From NCBI GenBank assembly GCA_964387845.1, contig CAYLXA010000002.1, positions 192,001 through 256,000 on the forward strand: DNA of 64,000 bases, in the 5' to 3' direction. This document shows, piece by piece, positions 1-56,198 of this stretch. The translations under genes and the position numbers were made by a program. The notes under the pieces are model-generated. The model saw nothing but the letters and a program-made list of their open reading frames with translations. It searched no databases and was not told the DNA's origin. Every line of letters begins with the position of its first letter. The first letter of the stretch is position 1. The DNA comes from an uncultured bacterium. GTDB lineage: Bacteria > Omnitrophota > Omnitrophia > Omnitrophales > Abzuiibacteriaceae.

Positions 1-357
1 TGCCGCAAAACCCAGATTCGCGAGCATCATCGCCAAAACCAAATAAGTCATGGTCGCCGGCAGTAGAAACATCAAAATCCAGCCGGATGACATGATTAAG
101 CAATAAATCACCAAGTACGGTTTACGGCGGTAACCCCGGATTGGAAAAATATCAGAAACGGCGCCGTAAAAAATTTTTAGAAACCAAGGGATCGACGATA
201 CCGACATGAAAATGGCGATTTCCTTGATACTAAAGCCAAGCGATCTTAAGAAAAGCGGCAGCGCAACACCGGAAATTCCTATAAAGCCCTGGATGAAATA
301 TACGACGCCAATCAACTTTACAACGCCCGAATTAACTTTCTTCATAAAGGCGAACAT
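1..357 (-). CDS. Partial (5' end only) MFS-type transporter, BT1/folate-biopterin transporter-like; the gene runs off the window start
   Basis: My own minus-strand translation of 357..1 is open throughout: MFAFMKKVNSGVVKLIGVVYFIQGFIGISGVALPLFLRSLGFSIKEIAIFMSVSSIPWFLKIFYGAVSDIFPIRGYRRKPYLVIYCLIMSSGWILMF... The GxxSD..P(I/L)xGyRRkpYL block resembles the BT1 family signature. This ORF is not in the supplied track. Confidence 0.45.
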   Translation of the reverse strand, partial: MFAFMKKVNSGVVKLIGVVYFIQGFIGISGVALPLFLRSLGFSIKEIAIFMSVSSIPWFLKIFYGAVSDIFPIRGYRRKPYLVIYCLIMSSGWILMFLLPATMTYLVLAMMLANLGFAA

Positions 358-693: not shown

Positions 694-969
694 TCAGCGT
701 ATATTTTTGCGCTTGGGCTTTGTTTCGGAGACCGGCTCTAACCCGATTTTGTGCGCAATTTCATTGAATTCCCGCCGCTCTAACTGATCTAGATTTTTGC
801 GCTTCTTTTTAAGCTCTTCATTCAGCCTGATGGCTTTCTCCTGCATTTCCTCATGTGTCTGCTGAGAACCCCCCATTAACAAAAAATTTTCGCCCTTGGT
901 TACGCGTTTATGCCCGCCCGCGTCATCCAAACCCAAACCCAATAAAATTCTTTTTTTTGGCGCTGCCAT
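694..969 (-). CDS. Hypothetical protein
   Basis: 91-aa ORF in tight tandem with the flanking genes; charged and coiled-coil-like; no recognisable motif. Confidence 0.3.
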   Translation of the reverse strand: MAAPKKRILLGLGLDDAGGHKRVTKGENFLLMGGSQQTHEEMQEKAIRLNEELKKKRKNLDQLERREFNEIAHKIGLEPVSETKPKRKNIR

Positions 970-1400: not shown

Positions 1401-2906
1401 TTATTGAATAAAAGTGATATTAATATCTTCCATGTGCAAAACAGGGTCTGCCAATACCATCACCCGGCTTTTGGACGTGTTCTCAAGCTCTTGAATCGTC
1501 GTTTGCTCTTGGTTGAGCAAGCGCTCCGCCACCTGAGGATGCACGTAGACATTCAAGATTTTGCCTTTTGATGTATTGAGCGCACGGCGGATTTCTTTGA
1601 CTGTTTGAATGGACATCGTCGCGGCTGATTTGATAACGCCCTTCCCTTTGCAATAGTGACATGAATCGTAAACTGCGCTTTCAAGCGACGGCCGGATGCG
1701 CTGCCTGGTCAATTCGATCAATCCCAAGTCAGACATGGGCATAATATTGGTTTTGGCGCGGTCCTTCTTACGAATCGCATCACGAAATGCCCTGTAGAGC
1801 CTCCGCCTGTGGTCAGCTTCCATCATGTCGATAAAATCAACCACGATGATGCCGCCGATATCGCGCAAACGCATCTGCCTGGCAATTTCTTGAGCCGCTT
1901 CCATGTTGGTTTTGAAAACGGTCTCTTCTAAGTTGCGTCTTCCGGTAAATTTACCCGTATTGACATCAATGGCAACCAGGCCTTCCGTTTGTTCGATCAC
2001 AATATGGCCGCCCGAAGGAAGTATCACATTGCGCTGAAAAGTCTTGGCAATTTCTTTTTCAATATTGTACTTTTCAAACAGAGGGATCTGCCCGCGGTAC
2101 CAATCCAGATGCGGTTGGTAGTCCGGAATATAGAGCTTGAAAAAGCGTTTTACCTGGGAATACATGCCGTAATGGTCAACAACAAGGCTATCCATTTCCT
2201 CAGTAAAAAAATCTCGAATGATCCGCTCAACCAAATCCAATTCCTCATGAATCAAGCACGGCGCTTTCTGCTTGTCGATCTCACTCTTGATTCGCTCCCA
2301 CATTTTGAGGAGATATTTGACGTCGCGAACAAACTCTTTTTTACTTTTGCCTTCTCCGGCTGTGCGAACGATAAAACCGATCCCTTCCGGAAAATCGATT
2401 TCATCAAATATTTTTCGGATCCGATCGCGCTCAGCGCGCTCTTCAATTCTGCGGGAAATGCCCACACGCCGGTCGCCTGGCATTAAAACGAGATAACGCG
2501 CGGGAATGGAAAAATGGGTTGTTAAACGGGCGCCCTTACCGCGGATGGGCTCTTTGACCACCTGAACGATGATTTCCTGTCCGACTTTCAGGACCTCATC
2601 AATTCGAGGGATGGGAACTTTTTCTTTTCGTTCGTGTTCTTCTGTCTCTACGTCTTCGTATGTTGATTCGGCTAGCGGAGAATCAACTGCGTCCGCCACA
2701 TAAAGAAAACCGTCTTTCTTCATACCGAGGTCGATAAACGCTGCTCCAATTCCGCGGACTACGGATTTGACTTTCCCCTTGTAGATATTGCCGAACATCT
2801 TCGAGGTGTCGGCCCGCTCGATATAAAATTCGTCGAGCTGTCCGTTCTCTAGAATTGCTACACGTTTTTCGTTTGCTTCCAGTGAAATCAAAATTTCTTT
2901 TTTCAT
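1401..2906 (-). CDS. rng: Ribonuclease G/E family endoribonuclease (Rne/Rng; S1 domain plus catalytic domain)
   Basis: MKKEILISLEANEKRVAILENGQLDEFYIERADTSKMFGNIYKGKVKSVVRGIGAAFIDLG is the classic Rng/CafA N-terminus (S1 domain). The track ORF extends 36 codons further upstream; the start was moved to the MKKEIL Met. Confidence 0.8.
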   Translation of the reverse strand: MKKEILISLEANEKRVAILENGQLDEFYIERADTSKMFGNIYKGKVKSVVRGIGAAFIDLGMKKDGFLYVADAVDSPLAESTYEDVETEEHERKEKVPIPRIDEVLKVGQEIIVQVVKEPIRGKGARLTTHFSIPARYLVLMPGDRRVGISRRIEERAERDRIRKIFDEIDFPEGIGFIVRTAGEGKSKKEFVRDVKYLLKMWERIKSEIDKQKAPCLIHEELDLVERIIRDFFTEEMDSLVVDHYGMYSQVKRFFKLYIPDYQPHLDWYRGQIPLFEKYNIEKEIAKTFQRNVILPSGGHIVIEQTEGLVAIDVNTGKFTGRRNLEETVFKTNMEAAQEIARQMRLRDIGGIIVVDFIDMMEADHRRRLYRAFRDAIRKKDRAKTNIMPMSDLGLIELTRQRIRPSLESAVYDSCHYCKGKGVIKSAATMSIQTVKEIRRALNTSKGKILNVYVHPQVAERLLNQEQTTIQELENTSKSRVMVLADPVLHMEDINITFIQ

Positions 2907-3073
2907 GTTGAATGGCCGTTTCGTAGTAATTGGGTTGTGATCTCTTGAGGCAAGCACTCCTCTCCAGCATGTGCTCAGGCTCCTTTTGTTTGGAACAAGC
3001 CTTTGGCTGTCCAAGCGTTGTTAAAATGCGAAAGAGATCGGATTGATGTTGATAATTGATGAACATATTGATC

Positions 3074-4699
3074 CTAAACAGCGGGCTGTGCCGCTTTCTG
3101 AGGTGCGATGACCGCTGTCGGGGTCGAACTTGTCACTGTTGTGGCTTTCATCGGCTGACCTTGCGTGTCAACGATGGTTACCGTAATAAAAAACAAAGTC
3201 TCAATTTTTGAATTTTTATCTTCTCCTTGGTCTCTAAAGTGACGTCGAAACAATCTGCCTAAAACCGGGATTTTTGATGCGCCAGGCACCGAATCTTCTT
3301 GGACTTGCTCGGCATCTCGCGCCAGGCCGCCAATTGCAATTGTTTCTCCGTTATTAATCAATACCTGAGTTTGTGCTGTTGTGGTTGTGAAAGAAGGTGC
3401 GACGAAACTTGATGAAAACGTCACGTCATCACCGCGACTGCTCACTTCCGGACTTAGGTCGACTAAAATTTCATTGGCTTGATTGATATGCGGAGTCACG
3501 TTTAAAACAACTCCGATATCACGATATGTGAAGCCGGTTACCTCAAAGCTACCGGTTGTTTCGTTGCGTTCAAACGACGGAATCGGGATCTGGCTTCCGA
3601 CCTGAACTTTTGCGGTTTGATTGTTTAACACAACAATGCGCGGATTGGAAACGATCTTTGTATTATTTTTTGATCGCAAATACTTCAGAGTTGCGTTAAA
3701 TGAACTAAAATTTAAAGTTCCAAAAGTGAACGTGGGCCTGTGTGACGCAAGCGTTAAATCTGGCGAGCCAATCGGTGCAACGCTGGGATCATTAACAGTA
3801 TCGGCTACGTTACCTCCATAAAACGCGTTAAAATGCGTTAGCGGGTTCTGGTCGCGGGTACCGCTTCCCGGAGCAGACCACGGAAACGTGACCTGGCGAG
3901 ACGCTCCCGTTAAGGATCCTTGCGGCGTCCAATTGATACCCAAATCTTCATTCTGATCAAGCTGAGTTCTCACGATTTTTGCATCGATATAGACCTGAGG
4001 CGTGCTCTTATCAAGACTGCGGATAACCTGGCCGATTTTATACAAATTAGTAGGAATATCCGTAATGATTACCGTGTTGGCGCGAGGCACCGATTTCACA
4101 CGACCTCGCTCAGAGAGTATGTCTTTGATAGCCGACTCCACTTCTGCCGCTGTTGTGTAATTTAAAACAAACGTCTCGGTTATCAATTCTTCGGTTGCAA
4201 GATTCTCTTTTGTTGTAACTCTGACTATGTTCTGCTCGCGCTCATAAACATACCCATAAGTCCGCAAAACAACCTCGAGCGCCTTTTGCCAAGGCACATC
4301 TTGAAGTCTGATCGTTACCGTCCCATGCACCTCAGGCCCGGCAACAATGTTGACGCCGCTTTTCAAACTCAATACCCGCAAAACATTTAAAATGTCAGCA
4401 TCTTTAAAGTCTAAACTAACATTTCCCGGACTGGTCGTTCCTTCACTGGCTGTTTGAACTGCTTTTGTATCGGCTGAGGGTTCAGCTGACGGAACCTCTT
4501 CAGAAGGACTGTATTCGTAATTTTCATTACCCGGTGATAACTCTGTGCTGTTTTGATCCAGGGGCGCACTCGCTTCGTTGGTGGGTTCTTCGGCCGACAC
4601 TTTGGCGGGCTCGACTCCGATCACCAAAATCATAAGTATAATGATCCAGGCAATTCGTCTAATCATGCTGAAGCCCGGAAGCTGTTGTGGTTGTATCAT
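3074..4699 (-). CDS. pilQ: Type IV pilus secretin PilQ
   Basis: Signal peptide, an N-terminal region, and a C-terminal secretin domain (NPRIVVLNNQTAKVQVGSQIPIP...). It is the last gene of a pilMNOPQ-ordered operon. Confidence 0.8.
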   Translation of the reverse strand: MIQPQQLPGFSMIRRIAWIIILMILVIGVEPAKVSAEEPTNEASAPLDQNSTELSPGNENYEYSPSEEVPSAEPSADTKAVQTASEGTTSPGNVSLDFKDADILNVLRVLSLKSGVNIVAGPEVHGTVTIRLQDVPWQKALEVVLRTYGYVYEREQNIVRVTTKENLATEELITETFVLNYTTAAEVESAIKDILSERGRVKSVPRANTVIITDIPTNLYKIGQVIRSLDKSTPQVYIDAKIVRTQLDQNEDLGINWTPQGSLTGASRQVTFPWSAPGSGTRDQNPLTHFNAFYGGNVADTVNDPSVAPIGSPDLTLASHRPTFTFGTLNFSSFNATLKYLRSKNNTKIVSNPRIVVLNNQTAKVQVGSQIPIPSFERNETTGSFEVTGFTYRDIGVVLNVTPHINQANEILVDLSPEVSSRGDDVTFSSSFVAPSFTTTTAQTQVLINNGETIAIGGLARDAEQVQEDSVPGASKIPVLGRLFRRHFRDQGEDKNSKIETLFFITVTIVDTQGQPMKATTVTSSTPTAVIAPQKAAQPAV

Positions 4700-25426: not shown

Positions 25427-26452
25427 TTAACCGAAAAATATTTTTGCCATGTCGTAGTACTCTTTTGGGACTACTTTCAGCTCGCCGGTTGCTTGAGAGA
25501 GCGGCACCGAAACGATCTTCGTTCCGGCTAAGCTCACCATCTGGCCAAACTGCTTCGCCTTGATTAATTCAACCGCCTTAACGCCAAACCGCGTGCCCAA
25601 AACGCGGTCAAAGGCAGTCGGTGTTCCGCCGCGCTGGATGTGGCCCAGTACGGTCACGCGGGTCTCGAATCCCGTGTTTTTTTCGATCATTTCGGCAAGG
25701 GTCTGCCCGATACCACCCAGGCGGACGTGGCCAAATTGATCCTTCTTTTCTTCCAAGGTAACGTCTTTTCCCGCAAGCTTGGCACCTTCCGCGACCGCGA
25801 CAATGCTGAAAGTTTTTCCGCGCGCATGGCGCTTTTTGATCAAACTGCAGACTTCGTTGATATCAACCGGAATTTCAGGGATCAAAATCACGTCCGCGCC
25901 GCCCGCAATACCGGACTCCAAAGCAATCCAACCGGCATGCCGGCCCATGATTTCGACAACAATCACGCGATTATGCGATTCTGCGGTCGTGTGAAGCCGG
26001 TCAATGCACTCGGTCACAATATTGATTGCCGTGTCAAAGCCGAACGTATAGTCCGTTGCGGAAAGATCGTTATCGATGGTTTTTGGAACACCGACAACCG
26101 GTAAGCCGTCCTTGACCAGCTTGCTCGCAACGCCCAGCGTGTCTTCGCCGCCGACTGCAACAAGTGCTGTAAGCTGATTTTTTTCAAACGTTTTTTTGAC
26201 TTTCTCGAGGCCGTTTGCATCTTTATACGGATTGGTTCGTGAAGTTCCGAGAATCGTTCCACCCTTCGGCAAAATACCTGACACAACCTTTCCATCCACC
26301 ACCATAAACTCATTTTCCATGACGCCTTTCCAGCCGTACCGAAAACCAAGCACTTGCCAGCCTTCCATGCTGGCTGTTTTTTCTACAGCGCGAATCACTG
26401 AATTAAGGCCGGGGCAATCACCGCCGCCCGTTAAAATACCTATTTTCCCCAT
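25427..26452 (-). CDS. pfp: 6-phosphofructokinase, pyrophosphate-dependent type signature
   Basis: MGKIGILTGGGDCPGLN, VGGEDTLG (a GGxDx block rather than GGDGS) and GVPKTIDNDL (Lys in PKTIDND). The Asp/Lys pair at these positions is the established PPi-PFK signature, versus Gly/Gly in ATP-dependent enzymes. Confidence 0.8.
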   Translation of the reverse strand: MGKIGILTGGGDCPGLNSVIRAVEKTASMEGWQVLGFRYGWKGVMENEFMVVDGKVVSGILPKGGTILGTSRTNPYKDANGLEKVKKTFEKNQLTALVAVGGEDTLGVASKLVKDGLPVVGVPKTIDNDLSATDYTFGFDTAINIVTECIDRLHTTAESHNRVIVVEIMGRHAGWIALESGIAGGADVILIPEIPVDINEVCSLIKKRHARGKTFSIVAVAEGAKLAGKDVTLEEKKDQFGHVRLGGIGQTLAEMIEKNTGFETRVTVLGHIQRGGTPTAFDRVLGTRFGVKAVELIKAKQFGQMVSLAGTKIVSVPLSQATGELKVVPKEYYDMAKIFFG

Positions 26453-42697: not shown

Positions 42698-45600
42698 TTA
42701 CGCCGCCTGTCGAATCGCCTGACGGCCCTGTTCTTCAATATAGAGCGCTTCGATTCTATCAAACATGATCGTAACGACACCCGTGTAATGGTCAAATTCG
42801 AACCCGAGGCTTTTTAAGGGAAAAAGAAGCCGCGCCTGCTCTTCGGGGCTCTTATTTTTAAGGATTTTCGCCAGGGTGCCCGCCGCGCGAAGAATCGGAA
42901 TGGTAAGCTCTTGAATGGCTGCTTTACTTCGAACGCTTTCCCAATTGGCAAACGCGACAAAAACATTTGTCAAAGCCGCGAGCTGACTTTCGGTTTCTGC
43001 CATCGCAGCACCATCTGTTGTTTGCGCCAAAGGAACGAACGGCATATCGGAAATCCGCAGATTGCGTGAAAGTGCACCAGCCGCCTGCGCACGCTCCACC
43101 GCATCCGTAATAGCTTTTACAAATTCATTTCGAATTTTCTGGACATGCATTCTCGCTTCTGTATCCGGAGCCGAAAATGCGATTCGCAATTCAGAGCGGG
43201 ACAATTGATCGAGACTCATTAAGAGAGCTTTAGCCAACGCGCCCTTGCCGTCAACCGTCACGGTCGGGATTCCGATTTTTACATCCGGCGTAATAAGAGC
43301 CTCGATTGCAGCTTCAATGCGGCTTGCAATGATAGCACCTGCGTCGGTCACTTGAACTGCTGCAGGAAGAATGGATGTGCTTGTGGTTAGGCTATTTAAA
43401 GTCGGTTCTACAACTAAACTGAAAAATCGAGAATTTTGTACCGCTAGAATATCAAATACATTATCAGAAACCGTTGTGGCCACTATTTTTGAAGCGGCCT
43501 CACGCAATTCTGAGCGATTCTCTTCCGCTTTTGCTGCAAGCTCCAGCGCTTCTTCGCTGAATTCCACAGTGTCTTCTTGCGGCTGTCCGTTCACTTTCAC
43601 TTGCGCCGGAGACTTTCGCGGCGCAAACTGCTGAATCGGTTTTCGATCAGGATTGATATCCACAACCGGCGGAACCGGCTGAACCGCCGCCCGAAGTTCG
43701 GATTTCTTAGTTTTTGTCGAATCTGATACGGGCGGAGCAGATTCAGCGGGCGTCGAGTCAGTTTCGCTGCTAATTCCTGCGGTTTTCTCAGCCTCTGCCC
43801 TTACCTTAGCGACCTTCACCCATTCAATGAAATCGAGCATGGGCCTTTCAGGATTTCGTATTTTAAGATCACCTTTTAGCAATCCATTAATAATTTTTAC
43901 CGCCAATCGCTTCATTTGGTCATCAAATTCAGTGCTTTTAATAATAAAGCTCTGATTGCTTTCTGTCATGTTAAGCGCCATTAGCGCAATGCCCAATAAA
44001 TCGCGCGTTGCATTCAACGGAAATTGAATGGTTTTCGATAGTTTTGGAAGGCGGTCGTTCAGTTTAACCATGACACCGCTTCTATTAAAAATGATGTCGA
44101 ATTGTCTATCAGTCAGGTTCATGTCCTTTTTCAATTGCTCCGGATTTTCTTTCGTTGAAAAAGCCAGCGCCCAATCAAGGACAACTGGTCCGTTATCCGT
44201 TTCAATGATATTAGGCAGGCCCAGATCATTGTGAACGACACCGGCCTGATGTGCATAATCGATGATTTGAGCGACTTGGAGCAATAAATCTGAAGAGCGA
44301 ATGGGTTTGGTTCCCGGTTTTTCAAACCGAAGCCAAAGCTGAGGGCGGTTATTTTCCGAGCTCCCAACCACGCCGCTGCGGGCACTAAATGGAAACCCTT
44401 CTTGCCATCCATTCGGATTAAGAAGTTTGATGAACTCATTTTCTCTGACGAGCAAGCGATGGTGAATTTTTATTTCATTTTCAAGACGCCTGTTGAAATC
44501 GTCCTTTTCATCCTCAGCCACACCATTGTTATAATCCTCCATTCCCGGCAGAACTTCCTTGACTATATTGAGCTCCCCGGTGCGCTCATTAATTACAAGG
44601 GTAATGTGAGATACCTCATGGGGACGTGGCGGACGGCTTCTTTTGATGACTTCAGCGTAATATAACTGCTTGCGAGGCTTGAAAGAAAAACTCCAGACCA
44701 TTCGGCTTCTTACCTTAATATCATTTGCATTTCTTACTTTAATAATTTTATTCTCTTCGATATACCGAAGCGGCGTATCGCCGTCATGATCTTCCCAGAT
44801 ACGTCCGCGTATTGTTTTGCGCGATAATTCAAACACGCGCGCCCGCACGCGCTCTTCAGACTCGGAAACGATAAGCACGCGCCCGCTCAAAATCAAAGCG
44901 TTCACGATGTATGGCGTATGAACCGGAGAATCAGCGTCTATAATCATTCGCTGGCGTTCGTTTCGATCTTTTATAATTTGTTTGTCGTTCAGCACAACAA
45001 TGCGATCCTTTTTTGGAATTCCTAACTTGTCGGCTAATTTTGTCATCCAGAAATGTTTCTTTAGCTGATCTTTTGTTAAACCGAGTTCATTGTCTTTATG
45101 CCGAAGCTCGGAGCGGCTGGGTTCGTCGCTATCCCTCCCTGTGCCGGACGGAAGCATATTTGGCCAGAAACGTGGCGTAATGTGCCAAGCAACCAAAAGC
45201 CCGAATCCTGCCGAAAGCGACACTGTCGCAAGAATTGAATAAACCATTTCCGGAATTTGTTGGGCAAGAAGCGGAACATTGAAGCGCAGTTCGGATTTCT
45301 GAGGCGTTAAATTACCGGAGATCACCTCAGCTTGCTTTTCCTCAATGATCGCCGTTGCTCGGCTGGAGGCTTCGATTTGCCGGTTTTGATCATCAATTAA
45401 AGCACTGGCTTCACGCGCCTTTTCCGCCAACTCGCTTGCCGAAGTGCTCTTGGGTAGAAATGATGAGATTTGTTTGAGACGGCGAAGTTCGACACGTTGA
45501 GCAGCCACCCGTTTGGGATTTTGTAGGATGTGTCTACGCTTAGAAGGATCAGAAGCAATCGGAAACTCAAACCGCGGAAGGTCATCGACATAAGCAATTA

Positions 45601-47446
45601 ACTTCTCTTTGCCATCAATTATGGCAGTGCGTATTTCTGATCGCTGTGTCAATGTAGCGACATCCGTGACTTGAGAGAAAATAGCGTCCAATTTTCTAAT
45701 TTCACTGCGTGTAAAAGCACGGTGTTGAAGCGCTAAATTATTGGGGTAAAGTGCCTGTGCGACTTTTAATCTCTCGTCCTTCGATACCAAGCTTAGAAGC
45801 TCCCGGATTTGAGATTGGTCAAACATGGTTTTGCGCGTTCCGAGCATGGATTCTAGATAGATTTTCTCAACACCTTCGACGGACGAAAGCCGCGGGCTGA
45901 TTTCGATATACGAAAAGTTTTCCTTTGCGAAACGTTCCTCCAGGCCCTCCGAGTGAAATCCGCCGCTCACCAGAATCGCAGACTGACGGCCGAGTTTTTT
46001 TAAAACTGACTTTGCATTTTCAACAAAATGTCTCTCGCGCGAAACCGCGCCTTGATAAAAATCAATTGCGGATTCGAAAATATCATCAAGTTCGGCGGAA
46101 ACTTTTATCGAATCAGGACTCACATCCCGTCTCTCGGCCAGTGTTTTTATTAAAAAACTGGGGCTGAGCGAATCTTTTTGGTACATCGCCACCGCCACTT
46201 CATTGCGGACGAGCTCGAGCTTGAGCAGCTTTTCGAGCAGGATTGATTTCTGAATCAAATCCACCAGCGATTTTTCCTGATCCGATTCGATCAGCACTTT
46301 AAAAACAGCGGCAACGGCCTTTTCAATTTCATCAAAAAACTGAATGCCGTCAATTTCGCTTTGGAATATCAAGGTCGCCAAAACTTTCGACAGTTCGGGA
46401 AAATATTCAAACTCAAAACCGTGCGGCGATAATGCTTGATACAAATCCTCCAGAAAAACTCTCGGCAATCTTGCGCCAAGCCCCTTCACGCCGCTTTCTA
46501 ACTTCCAATCGTCAAGGCCTGCTTTTAACTCCGCCGGCACATCCAGCGCGTGGACGAGTGATCGCAAGCTGTCCAACTCGCCTTGCGCTTCGTCTAACTT
46601 AATTTTAGACTCCAAATTTTGCGCTTTGAAAAATCGGACCAGCATCGGGTATTCAATTTGAGATTTTGCGTGTGCTATATCCATCTCGAGCCTGCTCAAT
46701 GCAAACCGCTTAATGACGTTCAAAAAGCCGATCAAATCCAGCCGTTCATCGCGCCAGGCCAGCCATGAGCGTAAAAAATCTTTTAAATCTTTATTGAAAT
46801 AACGCGATCCTAGGACTTCAATCTGTCCGTGGAGATTTTTTAAATAACGATCAACATTGGTGCGATGCGACGCGACTTTTTGGAAAGTTTTGAGGTTTTT
46901 CGCAAACGCTTCTAAGTTTTCAACGCCTTCCGCATGAATGCTCGGATCGTCCAAATGATCCAGCAAAAATAATTCGGCGCCCGAAAGGTCCCCGTTCTGC
47001 GCCATGTAATCGGCGATTTTTTTGTTGAGATCTTCATCATCGAAGAAACGGAATTGCTCCGGGTCAAGCTCGGATGAAGCTGCTTCTAAAAGAATTGTTT
47101 TGATTCCGTAGGCTCCGGAAATGTGCTCGATAATTTCCTTGGTATGCCGCTGCGCTTCATAGCTTCCGTGCGCATCGCGGATATGAATGATCGCGGGCGC
47201 TTCGTTACCTGCAGCTATTACCGGCCGGACCGACTCAACGCGGCCGAGCGATTCCGGGATACTGAGATCTAAAATTCTAAAATACGAGGTTTGTGCAGGT
47301 TCTGCAAAGTTGGCGATTTGAATGGTGGCCGGTGTTGCAAGCGCGGGGTCAATTGAAGAAGTGGCAAGAACCGTCAGAATAAGAAAACTTGAAAGCAATC
47401 TTACTGTAAACTTATATCTATTATTTCTCAATATTTTATCTGACAT
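42698..47446 (-). CDS. Giant (1582-aa) signal-peptide protein with one internal transmembrane helix and a protein-kinase-like catalytic motif set; function unknown
   Basis: Signal-peptide-like N-terminus (FTVRLLSSFLILTVLATSSIDPALA), a ~780-aa N-terminal region, and a hydrophobic helix (VYSILATVSLSAGFGLLVAWHI). The C-terminal region contains AEVIK (VAIK-like Lys), HNDLGLPNII (HxDxxxxN catalytic loop) and DWALAF (DFG-like), consistent with a protein-kinase-like fold. I recognise no other family. Confidence 0.6.
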   Translation of the reverse strand: MSDKILRNNRYKFTVRLLSSFLILTVLATSSIDPALATPATIQIANFAEPAQTSYFRILDLSIPESLGRVESVRPVIAAGNEAPAIIHIRDAHGSYEAQRHTKEIIEHISGAYGIKTILLEAASSELDPEQFRFFDDEDLNKKIADYMAQNGDLSGAELFLLDHLDDPSIHAEGVENLEAFAKNLKTFQKVASHRTNVDRYLKNLHGQIEVLGSRYFNKDLKDFLRSWLAWRDERLDLIGFLNVIKRFALSRLEMDIAHAKSQIEYPMLVRFFKAQNLESKIKLDEAQGELDSLRSLVHALDVPAELKAGLDDWKLESGVKGLGARLPRVFLEDLYQALSPHGFEFEYFPELSKVLATLIFQSEIDGIQFFDEIEKAVAAVFKVLIESDQEKSLVDLIQKSILLEKLLKLELVRNEVAVAMYQKDSLSPSFLIKTLAERRDVSPDSIKVSAELDDIFESAIDFYQGAVSRERHFVENAKSVLKKLGRQSAILVSGGFHSEGLEERFAKENFSYIEISPRLSSVEGVEKIYLESMLGTRKTMFDQSQIRELLSLVSKDERLKVAQALYPNNLALQHRAFTRSEIRKLDAIFSQVTDVATLTQRSEIRTAIIDGKEKLIAYVDDLPRFEFPIASDPSKRRHILQNPKRVAAQRVELRRLKQISSFLPKSTSASELAEKAREASALIDDQNRQIEASSRATAIIEEKQAEVISGNLTPQKSELRFNVPLLAQQIPEMVYSILATVSLSAGFGLLVAWHITPRFWPNMLPSGTGRDSDEPSRSELRHKDNELGLTKDQLKKHFWMTKLADKLGIPKKDRIVVLNDKQIIKDRNERQRMIIDADSPVHTPYIVNALILSGRVLIVSESEERVRARVFELSRKTIRGRIWEDHDGDTPLRYIEENKIIKVRNANDIKVRSRMVWSFSFKPRKQLYYAEVIKRSRPPRPHEVSHITLVINERTGELNIVKEVLPGMEDYNNGVAEDEKDDFNRRLENEIKIHHRLLVRENEFIKLLNPNGWQEGFPFSARSGVVGSSENNRPQLWLRFEKPGTKPIRSSDLLLQVAQIIDYAHQAGVVHNDLGLPNIIETDNGPVVLDWALAFSTKENPEQLKKDMNLTDRQFDIIFNRSGVMVKLNDRLPKLSKTIQFPLNATRDLLGIALMALNMTESNQSFIIKSTEFDDQMKRLAVKIINGLLKGDLKIRNPERPMLDFIEWVKVAKVRAEAEKTAGISSETDSTPAESAPPVSDSTKTKKSELRAAVQPVPPVVDINPDRKPIQQFAPRKSPAQVKVNGQPQEDTVEFSEEALELAAKAEENRSELREAASKIVATTVSDNVFDILAVQNSRFFSLVVEPTLNSLTTSTSILPAAVQVTDAGAIIASRIEAAIEALITPDVKIGIPTVTVDGKGALAKALLMSLDQLSRSELRIAFSAPDTEARMHVQKIRNEFVKAITDAVERAQAAGALSRNLRISDMPFVPLAQTTDGAAMAETESQLAALTNVFVAFANWESVRSKAAIQELTIPILRAAGTLAKILKNKSPEEQARLLFPLKSLGFEFDHYTGVVTIMFDRIEALYIEEQGRQAIRQAA

Positions 47447-47824
47447 AAAATATAGTTTTTTAACGTCTTAAATAACTAAAACAAAGAATCCTCCCTTCTC
47501 TGAAAAATTTTTGGGATTGAACTGATAATAAATTATGCCAGATTAGTGAAAGCAATACAAGGGTGTATTGATTTGCTAACCTGTTGTTTTATATGGACTT
47601 ACAGAAATTTCTTCTGTGGAGGTACTTTTAAACTGCAAAATAAGTCAAAATTTACTTAGATTTTGAACTTTTTTTGCTGTTTGCTTTTGCCTTTAAACGC
47701 TTAATTCTAGCGCGCCGGCGGGCTCTTTTTTTTCGTTTTTTTGCATCGCGTGTCATGTTTTCTTCCTTCCTTAATTAATAAATACTGCGATGCGGTGCGC
47801 GGCATCCTTGCCCGCGACAGCATC

Positions 47825-47863
47825 GTATTTTTGCATCGGCAAAAATGCGCGCTAGAGGACTCG
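47825..47863. repeat. 39-bp direct-repeat copy A: the last 17 nt of tRNA-Val plus 22 nt of its 3' flank
   Basis: GTATTTTTGCATCGGCAAAAATGCGCGCTAGAGGACTCG is identical to 48008..48046, which spans the 3' end of the intact tRNA-Val. Confidence 0.8.
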
Positions 47864-48007
47864 GCGCCTTCCGCTCGCAACCCTCGCTCCAGGTCGGCCA
47901 CCCGCTCCTCAAATCTGACGCTCAGCTTACTTCGCGTCATGAGGAGCTCCCTTCGAGTCCTCATCTTGCAGTGCCGTAGAGAGCTTTCCTTAAACTCTCA
48001 CGGCACA

Positions 48008-48046
48008 GTATTTTTGCATCGGCAAAAATGCGCGCTAGAGGACTCG
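48008..48046. repeat. 39-bp direct-repeat copy B (overlaps the 3' end of intact tRNA-Val)
   Basis: Exact match to 47825..47863. Confidence 0.8.
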
Positions 48047-48102
48047 AACCTCTGACCCCCACCATGTCAAGGTGATGCTCTAACCAACTGAGCTAAGCGC
48101 GC
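48029..48102 (-). tRNA. tRNA-Val (anticodon GAC), 74 nt, CCA not encoded
   Basis: Reverse complement GCGCGCTTAGCTCAGTTGGTTAGAGCATCACCTTGACATGGTGGGGGTCAGAGGTTCGAGTCCTCTAGCGCGCA. It has a 7-bp acceptor stem, a D-arm GCTC/GAGC, an anticodon loop TTGACAT, and a T-arm AGAGG-TTCGAGT-CCTCT. Confidence 0.85.
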
Positions 48103-48402
48103 ATAACTCCTTATATACGTGTTAACTTCTTTAATTTAATATACTTACAGAATAATTTATTTATTTTCATGTGACTCCTAGAACTCCTGAAATACCCCAA
48201 AATATCTCAATCCTTATCAGAGTTTTATCAGAGTGACTATAGCCAAAAATAATTCACCGCTGACTCTCACCTTATAAAGAACGTGCTCCACCTTAGCACT
48301 TCGTGATTTGGAAGCAAGTCGAGAAGGGATTTTATTAGAAAGGAGTCAGATTAGCAAGTTCTAATTGCGGGATTTTAAGCTGTCGGATTGCTCGTTTGCA
48401 AG

Positions 48403-48633
48403 CTAAAGCTTCCTTGCGACGTGAGGCCTTCTTGCTGATATGCAGTTCTGCGCCAGCCAGGAATTGATTCTATCTCCGTGATATCGGACAGCTCGGCCAA
48501 GCTTCAAATGAGGTATCAATTTTCGGCTGGTTAATTTCCGGACATGGCTTTTTGAGATATTTAATAAAATAGCAAGCTCACCAGCAGTTAAAAGGTGTAT
48601 CGGCCGGCCGTCGCTGTTCTCTTGGTTTTCCAT
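48403..48633 (-). CDS. Small HTH_17/excisionase(Xis)-family DNA-binding protein
   Basis: LLTAGELAILLNISKSHVRKLTSRKLIPHLKLGRAVRY is a typical MerR-like/phage-excisionase HTH. The start was taken at the internal Met (MENQ...); the track ORF extends to 48681. Confidence 0.45.
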   Translation of the reverse strand: MENQENSDGRPIHLLTAGELAILLNISKSHVRKLTSRKLIPHLKLGRAVRYHGDRINSWLAQNCISARRPHVARKL

Positions 48634-55214: not shown

Positions 55215-56198
55215 TTACGTTGCCAAAATCGGTAACAGTTTCAAACGAAATGGGTTTAACAACTTCTTCTCTGTAAACGCTTGCCGAAAGGGCGTCATCA
55301 CAAGCTGCCCTTTTATTTTTCCGACAGCAACTTTCGTTTTCCCATGAATCATCTGCTCCGCAGCAAAAGCTCCCAATTCGGTTGCGAGAATTCTGTCCTG
55401 CGCTGTCGGTGATCCGCCCCGCTGCAGATGCCCCAAAACAACAACCCGATACTCATTGCCGCTCATTCTCTTAAGTTTTTCAGCGACTTGAAATGCGCCT
55501 CCCTCTTTCTCCCCTTCCGCAATAACAAGGATGCTGCTTGTTTTTCCTTTTTTCCTTGATAAACACAGCCGGCCACACACTTCCTTCAGCACAGTTTTGA
55601 TTTCCGGCGTCAACACCTCTTCGGCTCCGCCCGCAATTCCCACATCGAGCGCAATAAACCCTGCTTCTCGGCCCATGACCTCAACGAGAAAAAAACGTTC
55701 GTGTGACTCTGCCGTGTCACGAATCTTATCAATCGCATCCAAAGCAGTGTTGACTGCTGTGTCGTAGCCAATTGTCGAATCTGTTCCATACAAATCGTTA
55801 TCGATGGTCCCCGGAATTCCAATGATTTTGCCTTTCCATATTTTAGAAAGATCAAGTGCTCCGCGATACGTTCCATTTCCACCAATCACAAGCAGACCGT
55901 CAATTTCCCTTTGCTCTAAATTAAATTTTGCTTGTTTTAAACCCTTGAGTGTTTCAAACTCTTTGCAACGCGAAGTTTTGATAATTGTTCCACCTCTTTG
56001 AATAATATTAGAAACCGAACGAGAGCCAAGTTCGATAAACTCATTCTTAATTAACCCCTGATAACCTCTTAAAACACCGCAGACGTTAAGACCTGAGTGG
56101 GTTGCAATACGTACGACAGCCCGTATGGCTGCGTTCATTCCGGGCGCGTCTCCGCCGCTTGTGAGCACTGCTATTCTTTTAAGCTTTTCTTTTGGCAT
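55215..56198 (-). CDS. pfkA: 6-phosphofructokinase, ATP-dependent type signature
   Basis: AVLTSGGDAPGMNAAIRAVV, IGGNGTYRGA (a GGxGx block) and GIPGTIDNDL (Gly in PGTIDND), in contrast to the PKTIDND/GGEDT in the other copy at 25427..26452. Confidence 0.8.
   Translation of the reverse strand: MPKEKLKRIAVLTSGGDAPGMNAAIRAVVRIATHSGLNVCGVLRGYQGLIKNEFIELGSRSVSNIIQRGGTIIKTSRCKEFETLKGLKQAKFNLEQREIDGLLVIGGNGTYRGALDLSKIWKGKIIGIPGTIDNDLYGTDSTIGYDTAVNTALDAIDKIRDTAESHERFFLVEVMGREAGFIALDVGIAGGAEEVLTPEIKTVLKEVCGRLCLSRKKGKTSSILVIAEGEKEGGAFQVAEKLKRMSGNEYRVVVLGHLQRGGSPTAQDRILATELGAFAAEQMIHGKTKVAVGKIKGQLVMTPFRQAFTEKKLLNPFRLKLLPILAT

Follow-up and report, generated by a model that had tools for sequence, protein, structure and literature searches.

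A duplicated tRNA-Val(GAC) 3' end bounds a gene-less insert in an uncultivated member of the Omnitrophota: a probable remnant of a tRNA-targeting integrative element

The tRNA-Val(GAC) gene and its duplicated 3' end

We examined a stretch of 64,000 nucleotides (64 kb; hereafter the window) from contig CAYLXA010000002.1 of an uncultured bacterium, in which the 3' part of a tRNA-Val(GAC) gene occurs twice and the two copies enclose a short, gene-less insert. The threonyl-tRNA synthetase (ThrRS) encoded in the window belongs with Candidatus Omnitrophota, its best matches among GTDB representatives being 72 to 75% identical, and the window is otherwise that of an ordinary chromosome, with thrS-infC-rpmI-rplT-pheS, pilus genes, two-component systems and glycolysis genes. 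Around the tRNA gene the order is NTP-transferase (nucleoside triphosphate transferase), a gene of the HTH_17 family, tRNA-Val, a small basic open reading frame (ORF; here micro-ORF), a giant gene and thrS.

The tRNA gene is intact (Table 1), and its sequence is invariant in all loci of relatives in which the tRNA is complete; it is identical in the contigs that we designate L084 and L087, and positions 3001-3074 of a third, L001, hold the same 74-nt sequence. The initial annotation had reported that the 3' end of this gene is repeated exactly a short distance downstream, and we recovered the same duplication: 39 nt are identical between the two copies, the similarity extends to 47 nt at 94% identity, and the copies lie 183 nt apart from start to start. 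The division of the repeat had to be revised, from 17 nt of tRNA and 22 nt of flank to 18 nt (including the discriminator A) and 21 nt, following the Rfam boundaries of the gene. The repeated segment is thus the 3' part of a tRNA, present once within the intact gene and once as a partial copy. Its tRNA-derived 18-mer, CGAGTCCTCTAGCGCGCA, which runs from the T-loop to the discriminator, has two exact occurrences in the 64 kb against a chance expectation of 0.02; none of 100 shuffles contained it twice or more, and no third copy of the core was seen in the window. A second or decayed tandem tRNA-Val was considered as the source of the distal copy and rejected, as the sequence 5' of that copy bears no resemblance to the first two-thirds of the tRNA.

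Structure of the insert

The DNA between the copies had been described as GC-rich and non-coding, which holds for the spacer as we delimit it; its guanine-plus-cytosine (GC) content compares with 46% for the window and 29 to 35% for the adjacent intergenic DNA. This foreign-looking, GC-rich DNA continues for about 38 nt past the distal repeat, to approximately position 47788, and the whole of 47788..48007 has a GC content of 59%. Reading away from the tRNA, the insert consists of two predicted hairpins, hp1 (which lies within the repeat and therefore recurs in the distal copy) and hp2, together termed block A; a short block B; a predicted hairpin P2; and a block D that is conserved in sequence and mostly unpaired and that abuts the distal repeat. 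The only other near-match to block D in the window carries 3 mismatches. The segment from block B to block D is marked by the pattern GAGGACTCGAAGKGAGC...GTGGCCGACCYGGARCGARG.

Block B forms an inverted repeat with the T-arm of the tRNA. Its first 11 nt (47952..47962) are antisense to the T-loop and T-stem sequence TTCGAGTCCTC (48038..48048), as had been noted in the initial annotation, and the stem GCTCCTCA...TGAGGAGC given there was also found. In addition, nine nucleotides of block B are predicted to pair with the distal repeat in a helix, P1, that encloses P2 and block D. P1 is predicted for both the window and L087, with RNA and with DNA parameters and on both DNA strands; it comprises 9 bp, with a multi-branch loop interrupting it, and has no counterpart in L001. 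Beyond the distal repeat a further GC-rich hairpin, hp2', has an AAGGA-containing apex like that of hp2 and no counterpart in the flank of the empty site of L084 described below. Because hp2' trails the distal repeat as hp2 trails the proximal one, the locus resembles two units, each made up of a core, hp1 and an hp2-like hairpin.

Table 1 Features of the tRNA-Val(GAC) locus and its surroundings, with coordinates in the window and, where available, in relatives
Feature	Position in window	Strand	Position in relatives	Description
tRNA-Val(GAC)	48029..48102	minus	L001 3001-3074	Intact, no encoded CCA; presumed integration target; Rfam RF00005, 68.6 bits; ARAGORN 48028..48103
Proximal repeat copy (attL-like)	48008..48046	minus	L001 3066..3085 (20-nt repeat)	T-loop (CGAGT) through acceptor 3' strand and discriminator (18 nt), plus 21-nt trailer
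Distal repeat copy (attR-like)	47825..47863	minus	L001 3174..3193 (20-nt repeat)	Displaced tRNA 3' end and trailer, including the second hp1
Spacer between copies	47864..48007			144 nt, non-coding, 59% GC
Hairpin hp1	48011..48028; identical second copy 47828..47845	minus		UUUUUGC-CGAU-GCAAAAA, directly 3' of the tRNA, within the repeat; predicted fold
Hairpin hp2	47971..48006	minus		GTGCCGTGAGAGTTTAAGGAAARCTCTCTACGGCAC; 36 nt, 15 bp, one bulge, AAGGA loop; predicted fold, z = -6.0
Block A	48028..47971	minus		hp1 plus hp2
Block B	47946..47962	minus		GAGGACTCGAAGGGAGC; inverted repeat with tRNA T-arm
Hairpin P2	47904..47947	minus		GCUCCUCA..UGAGGAGC enclosing UGACGC..GCGUCA; predicted fold
Block D	47864..47903	minus		GTGGCCGACCYGGARCGARG ... 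GAAGG(G)CGC; conserved in sequence, mostly unpaired
Hairpin hp2'	47788..47825	minus		GC-rich, AAGGA-containing apex; predicted fold
Overlapping ORF	47707..47964	minus		85 aa
Overlapping ORF	47741..48055	plus
HTH_17 gene	48403..48633	minus	L084 1486..1737; L082 4501..4728	HTH_17 and excisionase-family match
Phage_integrase-family genes			L082 615..2579 (654 aa) and 2886..3974 (362 aa)	5' and 3' of tRNA-Val in L082
Micro-ORF	47652..47756	minus	L084 2157..2288; L001 ~3229..3327; L089 ~831..941; L092 ~97..201	32 to 43 aa, very basic
Giant gene	42698..47446	minus		1582 aa
TCTGGCATAATTTAWTATCAG motif region	~47500..47560	minus	L084 ~2370..2420; L086 60..130; L001 ~3430..3500	Likely promoter and leader of giant gene
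Conserved upstream block	~48160..48240		L084 ~1880..1960; L106 ~2105..2185	~75 nt, upstream of tRNA-Val
Phosphofructokinase paralogues (PF00365)	25427..26452; 55215..56198	minus

Occupied and empty states of the site in relatives

Loci of relatives were gathered via ThrRS, via an exact scan of metagenomes for the 3' half of the tRNA, and via homologues of the giant protein and of the NTP-transferase; three of the contigs obtained (L086, L088 and L106) end at or near the tRNA. In L084, which is the nearest syntenic relative (ThrRS 91% identical) and has the same gene order as the window, the site is empty, with the tRNA followed by 77 nt and then the micro-ORF and with no duplication. The site is also empty in L092, where 31 nt separate the tRNA from the micro-ORF. 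An unoccupied site with the same flanks therefore exists in a relative.

Other relatives carry integrase-bearing elements or their ends at the same gene. In L082 a Phage_integrase gene of 362 aa (E = 2.7e-27) lies 93 nt past an intact and identical tRNA-Val, with HTH_3 and HTH_17 genes after it; a second Phage_integrase-family gene, encoding an unusual protein of 654 aa, lies 5' of the tRNA in this contig, so that the tRNA is flanked by two such genes. In L081 (= L090 = L091) and in L089, an island end bearing an HTH_17 gene directly adjoins 45 nt copied from the tRNA 3' part, after which come the micro-ORF and the giant gene. This 45-nt core starts in the anticodon stem and runs to the tRNA 3' end. 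A 28-nt motif (93% identity) and an inverted 18-mer are common to the two island ends, as would be expected of arm-type sites. The same target is thus used by integrase-bearing elements in relatives of the window.

Homologous, gene-less mini-inserts are found in the lineages of two distant relatives (ThrRS 77% and 72% identical), represented by L087 and by the mutually identical L001, L083 and L093. The latter three contain hp1, hp2, block B and a second TAGCGCGCAGTTTTGCTGAT copy (20 nt), while in L087 block B is preceded by a different, AU-rich hairpin and followed by a further hairpin, block D and a second CGAGTCCTCTAGCGCGCAT copy (19 nt). Given that empty, island and mini-insert states all occur among relatives, tRNA-Val is, on the strength of these sequence comparisons, an integration hot spot in this clade and the insert is polymorphic, as the hypothesis of an attachment site predicts. 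The synteny comparison that the initial annotation had proposed thereby yielded both an empty site (L084, L092) and integrase islands (L082, L081, L089), and the outcomes that it had named as contradicting an attachment site, namely an insert fixed in close relatives without variable content or a repeat that collapses on reassembly, were not observed. As a separate observation, three independent short-read contigs break inside tRNA-Val (L092 and L093 at position 1, L106 at position 2273), which is consistent with repeats or strain heterogeneity at the site.

Searches for genes, RNA families and a parent element

Neither the 1582-aa protein nor any of 36 ORFs of the window, 127 to 590 aa long, matched the Phage_integrase family, and searching the window by tblastn with the two integrases of L082 gave no match. 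No integrase therefore lies inside or next to the repeat-bounded segment, and the lack of a nearby integrase noted at the outset extends to the entire 64 kb. An IntI- or Xer-type recombinase was likewise not detected in the window, and each locus holds one copy of the insert; second copies of the insert blocks were found neither in the window nor in 105 of the 107 fetched loci.

Two overlapping ORFs, which had been put down to the repeat, were checked and neither has support as a gene: the minus-strand ORF matches no Pfam or NCBIfam family and loses its reading frame in the inserts of L001 and L087, while for the plus-strand ORF the evidence is limited to its translation, with no family search. 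The sole match to the 40 aa of the minus-strand ORF that the insert encodes was one spurious repetitive protein among 1.84 billion representatives. A coding remnant in the insert was accordingly rejected, as there is no family match and the frame is not conserved. Rfam 15, searched at E values up to 10 with the window, L087 and L001, returned only the tRNA and chance-level matches to generic hairpin and antisense-RNA models, with no family over the insert, and no terminator is predicted inside it.

In phage and plasmid collections, similar DNA was limited to chance matches of 22 to 35 nt. Among IMG/VR viral contigs, patterns for hp2, for the hp1 junction and for the junction of block D with the core had 0 matches, those for blocks B and D matched only by chance, inside unrelated phage genes, and the tRNA 3' pattern had a sole match, a tRNA-Val(TAC) in a nine-tRNA cluster on a 190-kb viral contig. 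A resemblance of block D to a phage portal gene (VADLER) was set aside as a 20-nt chance match in coding DNA.

The HTH_17 gene on the other side of the tRNA had been presented as an Xis-type gene possibly connected with the repeat. The family assignment stands, since the protein matches both HTH_17 and an excisionase family, and it is 51% identical to the product of the HTH_17 gene in the L082 island. The connection with the insert does not: the gene holds a syntenic position in L106 and, at 62% identity, in L084 with its empty site, so that it did not arrive with the insert, and its membership in the insert was rejected. It may be an old, domesticated element gene.

Conservation of the insert among distant relatives

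In the ThrRS tree of the hosts the window groups with L084 and L086, as (window,(L084,L086)), followed by L087 and then L001. At third codon positions of thrS the window is 56% identical to L084, 44% to L087 and 42% to L001, which indicates that neutral sites are saturated over these distances. The module from block B to block D is nonetheless 71% identical between the window and L087 across aligned columns. Block B is kept at 16/17 positions in L087 and 15/17 in L001, where an A-to-G change still permits a G.U pair, and its complementarity to the T-arm is retained in all three lineages.

The differences that have accumulated tend to respect the predicted folds. The aligned trailers of the window and L001 differ at 5 positions, of which 4 lie in hp1 or hp2 and break no stem, the fifth lying just past hp2. 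In hp1 the window has a U-A closing pair where L001 has G-C, a compensatory difference that is accompanied by one change in the hp1 loop, and the single stem difference in hp2 is from U.G to U-A. In P2, the outer stem has U-A as its third pair in the window; in L087 this pair is A-U, and the hairpin there is 43 nt long and occupies the same position with a different inner stem. The composition of the insert is that of a mosaic, in that the window has block A in common with the distant L001, and blocks C and D in common with L087; L087 has an unrelated hairpin in place of block A, and L001 lacks blocks C and D and the partner of P1.

Conservation above the neutral level together with preserved pairing argues against a random or inert scar. 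Judged from these alignments, the conservation of the insert would require that a small element moved horizontally in recent times or that the insert itself is under selection, and the three independent insert sequences available do not separate recent transfer from selection.

Origin of the insert

We consider it probable, though well short of certain, that the insert derives from a site-specific integrative element targeting the 3' part of tRNA-Val(GAC), either as its decayed remnant or as a form that is miniature by nature. Such an element would have carried its own copy of the tRNA 3' end as attP and recombined with the tRNA gene as attB, with a crossover in or 3' of the T-loop that was most likely catalysed by a tyrosine integrase. 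The element-borne copy would then have rebuilt the intact tRNA, giving the proximal repeat as attL, while the original 3' end would have been displaced downstream, giving the distal repeat as attR. The genes of the element, including its integrase, would have been lost or never have been present, leaving about 144 bp of former attP-arm DNA between the cores. The tRNA promoter could still read through into the downstream micro-ORF, given that no terminator is predicted in the insert. Since no integrase-bearing parent with these arms was found, we infer the recombinase chemistry, the identity of the element-borne copy, the deletion history and any present mobility through an integrase acting in trans. 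Of the reading proposed in the initial annotation, the attL/attR-type duplication is thus the part that is best supported, by the empty site and the islands of relatives, and the recombinase mechanism is the part that goes beyond them. The excision scar offered there as a further option does not fit, because excision restores a single site and both copies of the repeat are retained here.

Several observations weigh against a simple integration remnant. Block A of the window and L001 is 95% identical over 61 nt, far above the 42% at thrS third positions, and the three stem differences described above all preserve pairing. The copies within a genome share lineage-specific trailer bases (T at +1 and C at +8 in the window; G and T in L001), which a simple attP x attB exchange does not predict unless the elements were resident or stacked in tandem, and the length and boundaries of the repeat vary by lineage (39, 19 and 20 nt). 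The sole full island at this tRNA has a different core, with its start in the anticodon stem, and unrelated arms, and no integrase-bearing parent with hp2 or with block B or D arms was found in IMG/VR or in 105 of the 107 fetched loci. Resident elements that diverged together with their hosts, with repeated integration and decay, would explain both the shared trailer bases and the varying boundaries. Tandem accretion also fits the two-unit layout of the locus, in which hp2' may be a remnant of a second, older element, and would account for the GC-rich DNA beyond the distal repeat and for the presence of the trailer inside the repeat.

The same conservation could alternatively reflect a functional structured RNA in the 3' trailer of tRNA-Val, co-transcribed with the tRNA and the micro-ORF, in which block B has two alternative partners, the T-arm (11 bp) and the distal pseudo-3' end (P1, 9 bp); such an RNA could modulate maturation of the tRNA or stabilise or process the downstream mRNA, and the duplication would be part of its design whatever its origin. 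Conservation far above neutral, the stem differences in hp1, hp2 and P2 that keep pairing, the complementarity of block B and the T-arm in three lineages, and the architecture common to the window and L087, in which P1 closes a loop containing P2 and a single-stranded block D, are all in keeping with this proposal, as are the absence of a predicted terminator in the insert and a micro-ORF that starts 22 to 31 nt past the tRNA in L089 and L092, implying a shared transcript. We nevertheless judge it unlikely, because neither the nearest relative, L084, nor L092 has the insert, L087 has it yet no micro-ORF, block A is replaced in L087 by an unrelated hairpin while L001 is without blocks C and D and the P1 partner, no Rfam family matches, and covariation in three independent sequences carries no statistical weight; a recently transferred DNA element would, moreover, keep the same stems equally. 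Another candidate origin is duplication in place without a recombinase, through slippage, unequal exchange or repair with captured filler, either independently in each lineage or once with subsequent gene conversion. Trailer bases common to both copies within each genome, the tandem-unit look given by the hp2-like hairpin after the distal copy, and repeat lengths that vary by lineage would all follow readily, but this mechanism fails to explain spacer blocks (B, D and hp2) that are 71 to 95% identical across unrelated lineages, the exact start of the repeat at the T-loop, or the proven use of this tRNA as an integrase target in relatives, and we regard it as improbable.

Two further possibilities would assign the insert present or past mobility of its own. 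One is a still-mobile, gene-less mini-element of about 110 to 185 bp, made up of blocks B, C and D and the tRNA-end core, that integrases acting in trans move between Omnitrophota lineages, its antisense T-arm folding as single-stranded DNA or RNA into a mimic of the target; we think this unlikely. The other, by analogy with integron cassettes, is an element that recombines as folded single-stranded DNA, in which the inverse core (block B) and the core (distal repeat) would anneal and mimic the T-arm duplex for a recombinase supplied in trans. The succession of an inverse core, a structured spacer of about 90 to 100 nt with variable sequence, and a core is conserved between the window and L087, P1 appears in DNA folds of both strands, P2 keeps its structure in these two genomes even though most of its sequence differs, and the element is gene-less and very small. 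This remains an analogy to which no IntI, Xer or other recombinase can be linked; the stem of attC is nearly continuous, whereas P1 consists of 9 bp broken by a multi-branch loop, the core partner is missing in L001, and the searches of the window and the fetched loci gave no second copy, all of which makes such a cassette highly improbable. A mis-joined or falsely duplicated repeat could also be imagined at a site where three short-read contigs of relatives break inside the tRNA and which is evidently hard to assemble. The same layout is, however, present in independent assemblies, with L001 (an NCBI metagenome-assembled genome, MAG), L083 (JGI) and L093 (Logan) identical and L087 (ENA) a diverged homologue, and the spacer is unique sequence with no collapsed repeat, so that an assembly artefact is effectively ruled out.

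Comparison with known elements

The remnant of an integrative element that we favour is a familiar kind of feature, unusual for its tiny size and for its recurrence in two distant relatives. Cis-mobilizable elements (CIMEs) are the closest comparison, and those described are kilobase-sized decayed islands. As in CIMEs, the insert has attL- and attR-like flanks at the 3' end of a target gene, genes for integration and transfer are missing (both copies of the repeat are intact and identical, with no genes between them), tandem accretion is possible, and related integrase-bearing elements use the same target in relatives. It differs in its spacer of about 144 bp without gene remnants, in having no identified parent among integrative and conjugative elements (ICEs), integrative and mobilizable elements (IMEs) or prophages, and in its uncultivated host of the Omnitrophota. 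The definition of CIMEs and the accretion model are those developed for the ICESt1/ICESt3-related islands of Streptococcus thermophilus (PMC5704250).

Islands and prophages that tyrosine integrases insert into tRNA genes likewise have a T-loop-type core, an intact tRNA regenerated at one end, and an empty site in a relative. The T-loop is one of the classical sublocations used by integrases in tRNA genes (bioRxiv 10.1101/2020.11.02.365908), and mycobacteriophage Ms6 integrates at the T-loop of a tRNA-Ala gene (PMC1762012). Unlike such islands, the insert has no integrase, excisionase or cargo between its repeats, and the identity of the copies runs 21 nt into a lineage-specific trailer.

Two other classes of element are analogous in part. 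Integron attC sites and the folded attP of CTX phage are single-stranded recombination substrates, and the insert shares with them, by analogy, an inverse core and a core around a variable, structured spacer of about 100 nt, a fold that could reproduce the target duplex, and a spacer of which part conserves structure better than sequence. It differs from them in its lack of any IntI or Xer association, in a 9-bp stem with a multi-branch loop and in the absence of a cassette array, and nothing that we tested supports membership among folded single-strand att sites. Miniature inverted-repeat transposable elements (MITEs) are miniature, non-autonomous derivatives of transposons. The insert is comparable to these in being gene-less and 100 to 200 bp long, in having homologous copies in divergent genomes and in presumably depending on an enzyme supplied in trans; it differs in having no terminal inverted repeats, no short target duplication of fixed length and one copy per locus, and its bounding repeats of 19 to 39 nt derived from a tRNA are a signature of site-specific recombination rather than of transposition.

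These results mark tRNA-Val(GAC) as an active integration hot spot in uncultivated Omnitrophota, in which mobile elements have hardly been described. Having occupied, empty and decayed states of one site in relatives can aid the calling of island boundaries in MAGs and explains contig breaks at the tRNA. They also raise the question of how a gene-less remnant of 144 bp has been conserved despite saturated synonymous sites, for which the candidate explanations are recent horizontal movement and recruitment to an RNA role between the tRNA and the co-transcribed micro-ORF. Should the mini-element prove truly mobile, it would be a counterpart of a MITE in site-specific recombination, or an attC-like cassette docking at a tRNA gene, and would represent a minimal substrate for a tRNA-targeting integrase.

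Neighbouring genes and conserved motifs

The micro-ORF directly 3' of tRNA-Val encodes a very basic product (MTRDAKKRKKRARRRARIKRLK...), has a strong Shine-Dalgarno sequence and is found in five lineages with 11 invariant positions (Table 1). Because it begins so close to the tRNA in L089 and L092, it is probably co-transcribed with tRNA-Val, as far as gene spacing indicates. The micro-ORF has no match in Pfam, NCBIfam or PDB, on which ground its identification as a known ribosomal protein was rejected, and it is absent in L087.

The giant gene always lies between tRNA-Val and the micro-ORF on one side and thrS on the other in this clade of Omnitrophota. Its homologues (P0002 to P0023) span 1074 to 2622 aa, with a conserved region of the first ~550 aa and a highly variable C-terminus; full-length identity to the closest syntenic relative is 33%, despite a ThrRS identity of 91%. 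Residues 1050 to 1118 have a weak match to Bud32/RIO-like kinases, and a pattern scan of GTDB representatives recovered no relatives of the protein. Upstream of the gene, an TCTGGCATAATTTAWTATCAG motif, which resembles an extended -10 element, and a GGGAGG leader are conserved in several relatives and, from their sequence and placement, likely constitute its promoter and 5' untranslated region.

On the other side of the locus, the window, L084 and L106 share a conserved block of about 75 nt, ACTCTGATAAAACTCTGATAAG...GATATTTTGRGGTATTTC...GAGTTCTWAGGA, located between roughly 60 and 135 nt upstream of tRNA-Val. It includes the direct repeat CTCTGATAA, which occurs twice (at about -131 and -120), and an internal hairpin, and a second conserved element, TTAGAACTTGCTAAT, lies further upstream; candidate roles for the block are those of a regulator site, promoter or small RNA. 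Elsewhere in the window, the two phosphofructokinase paralogues lie about 30 kb apart.

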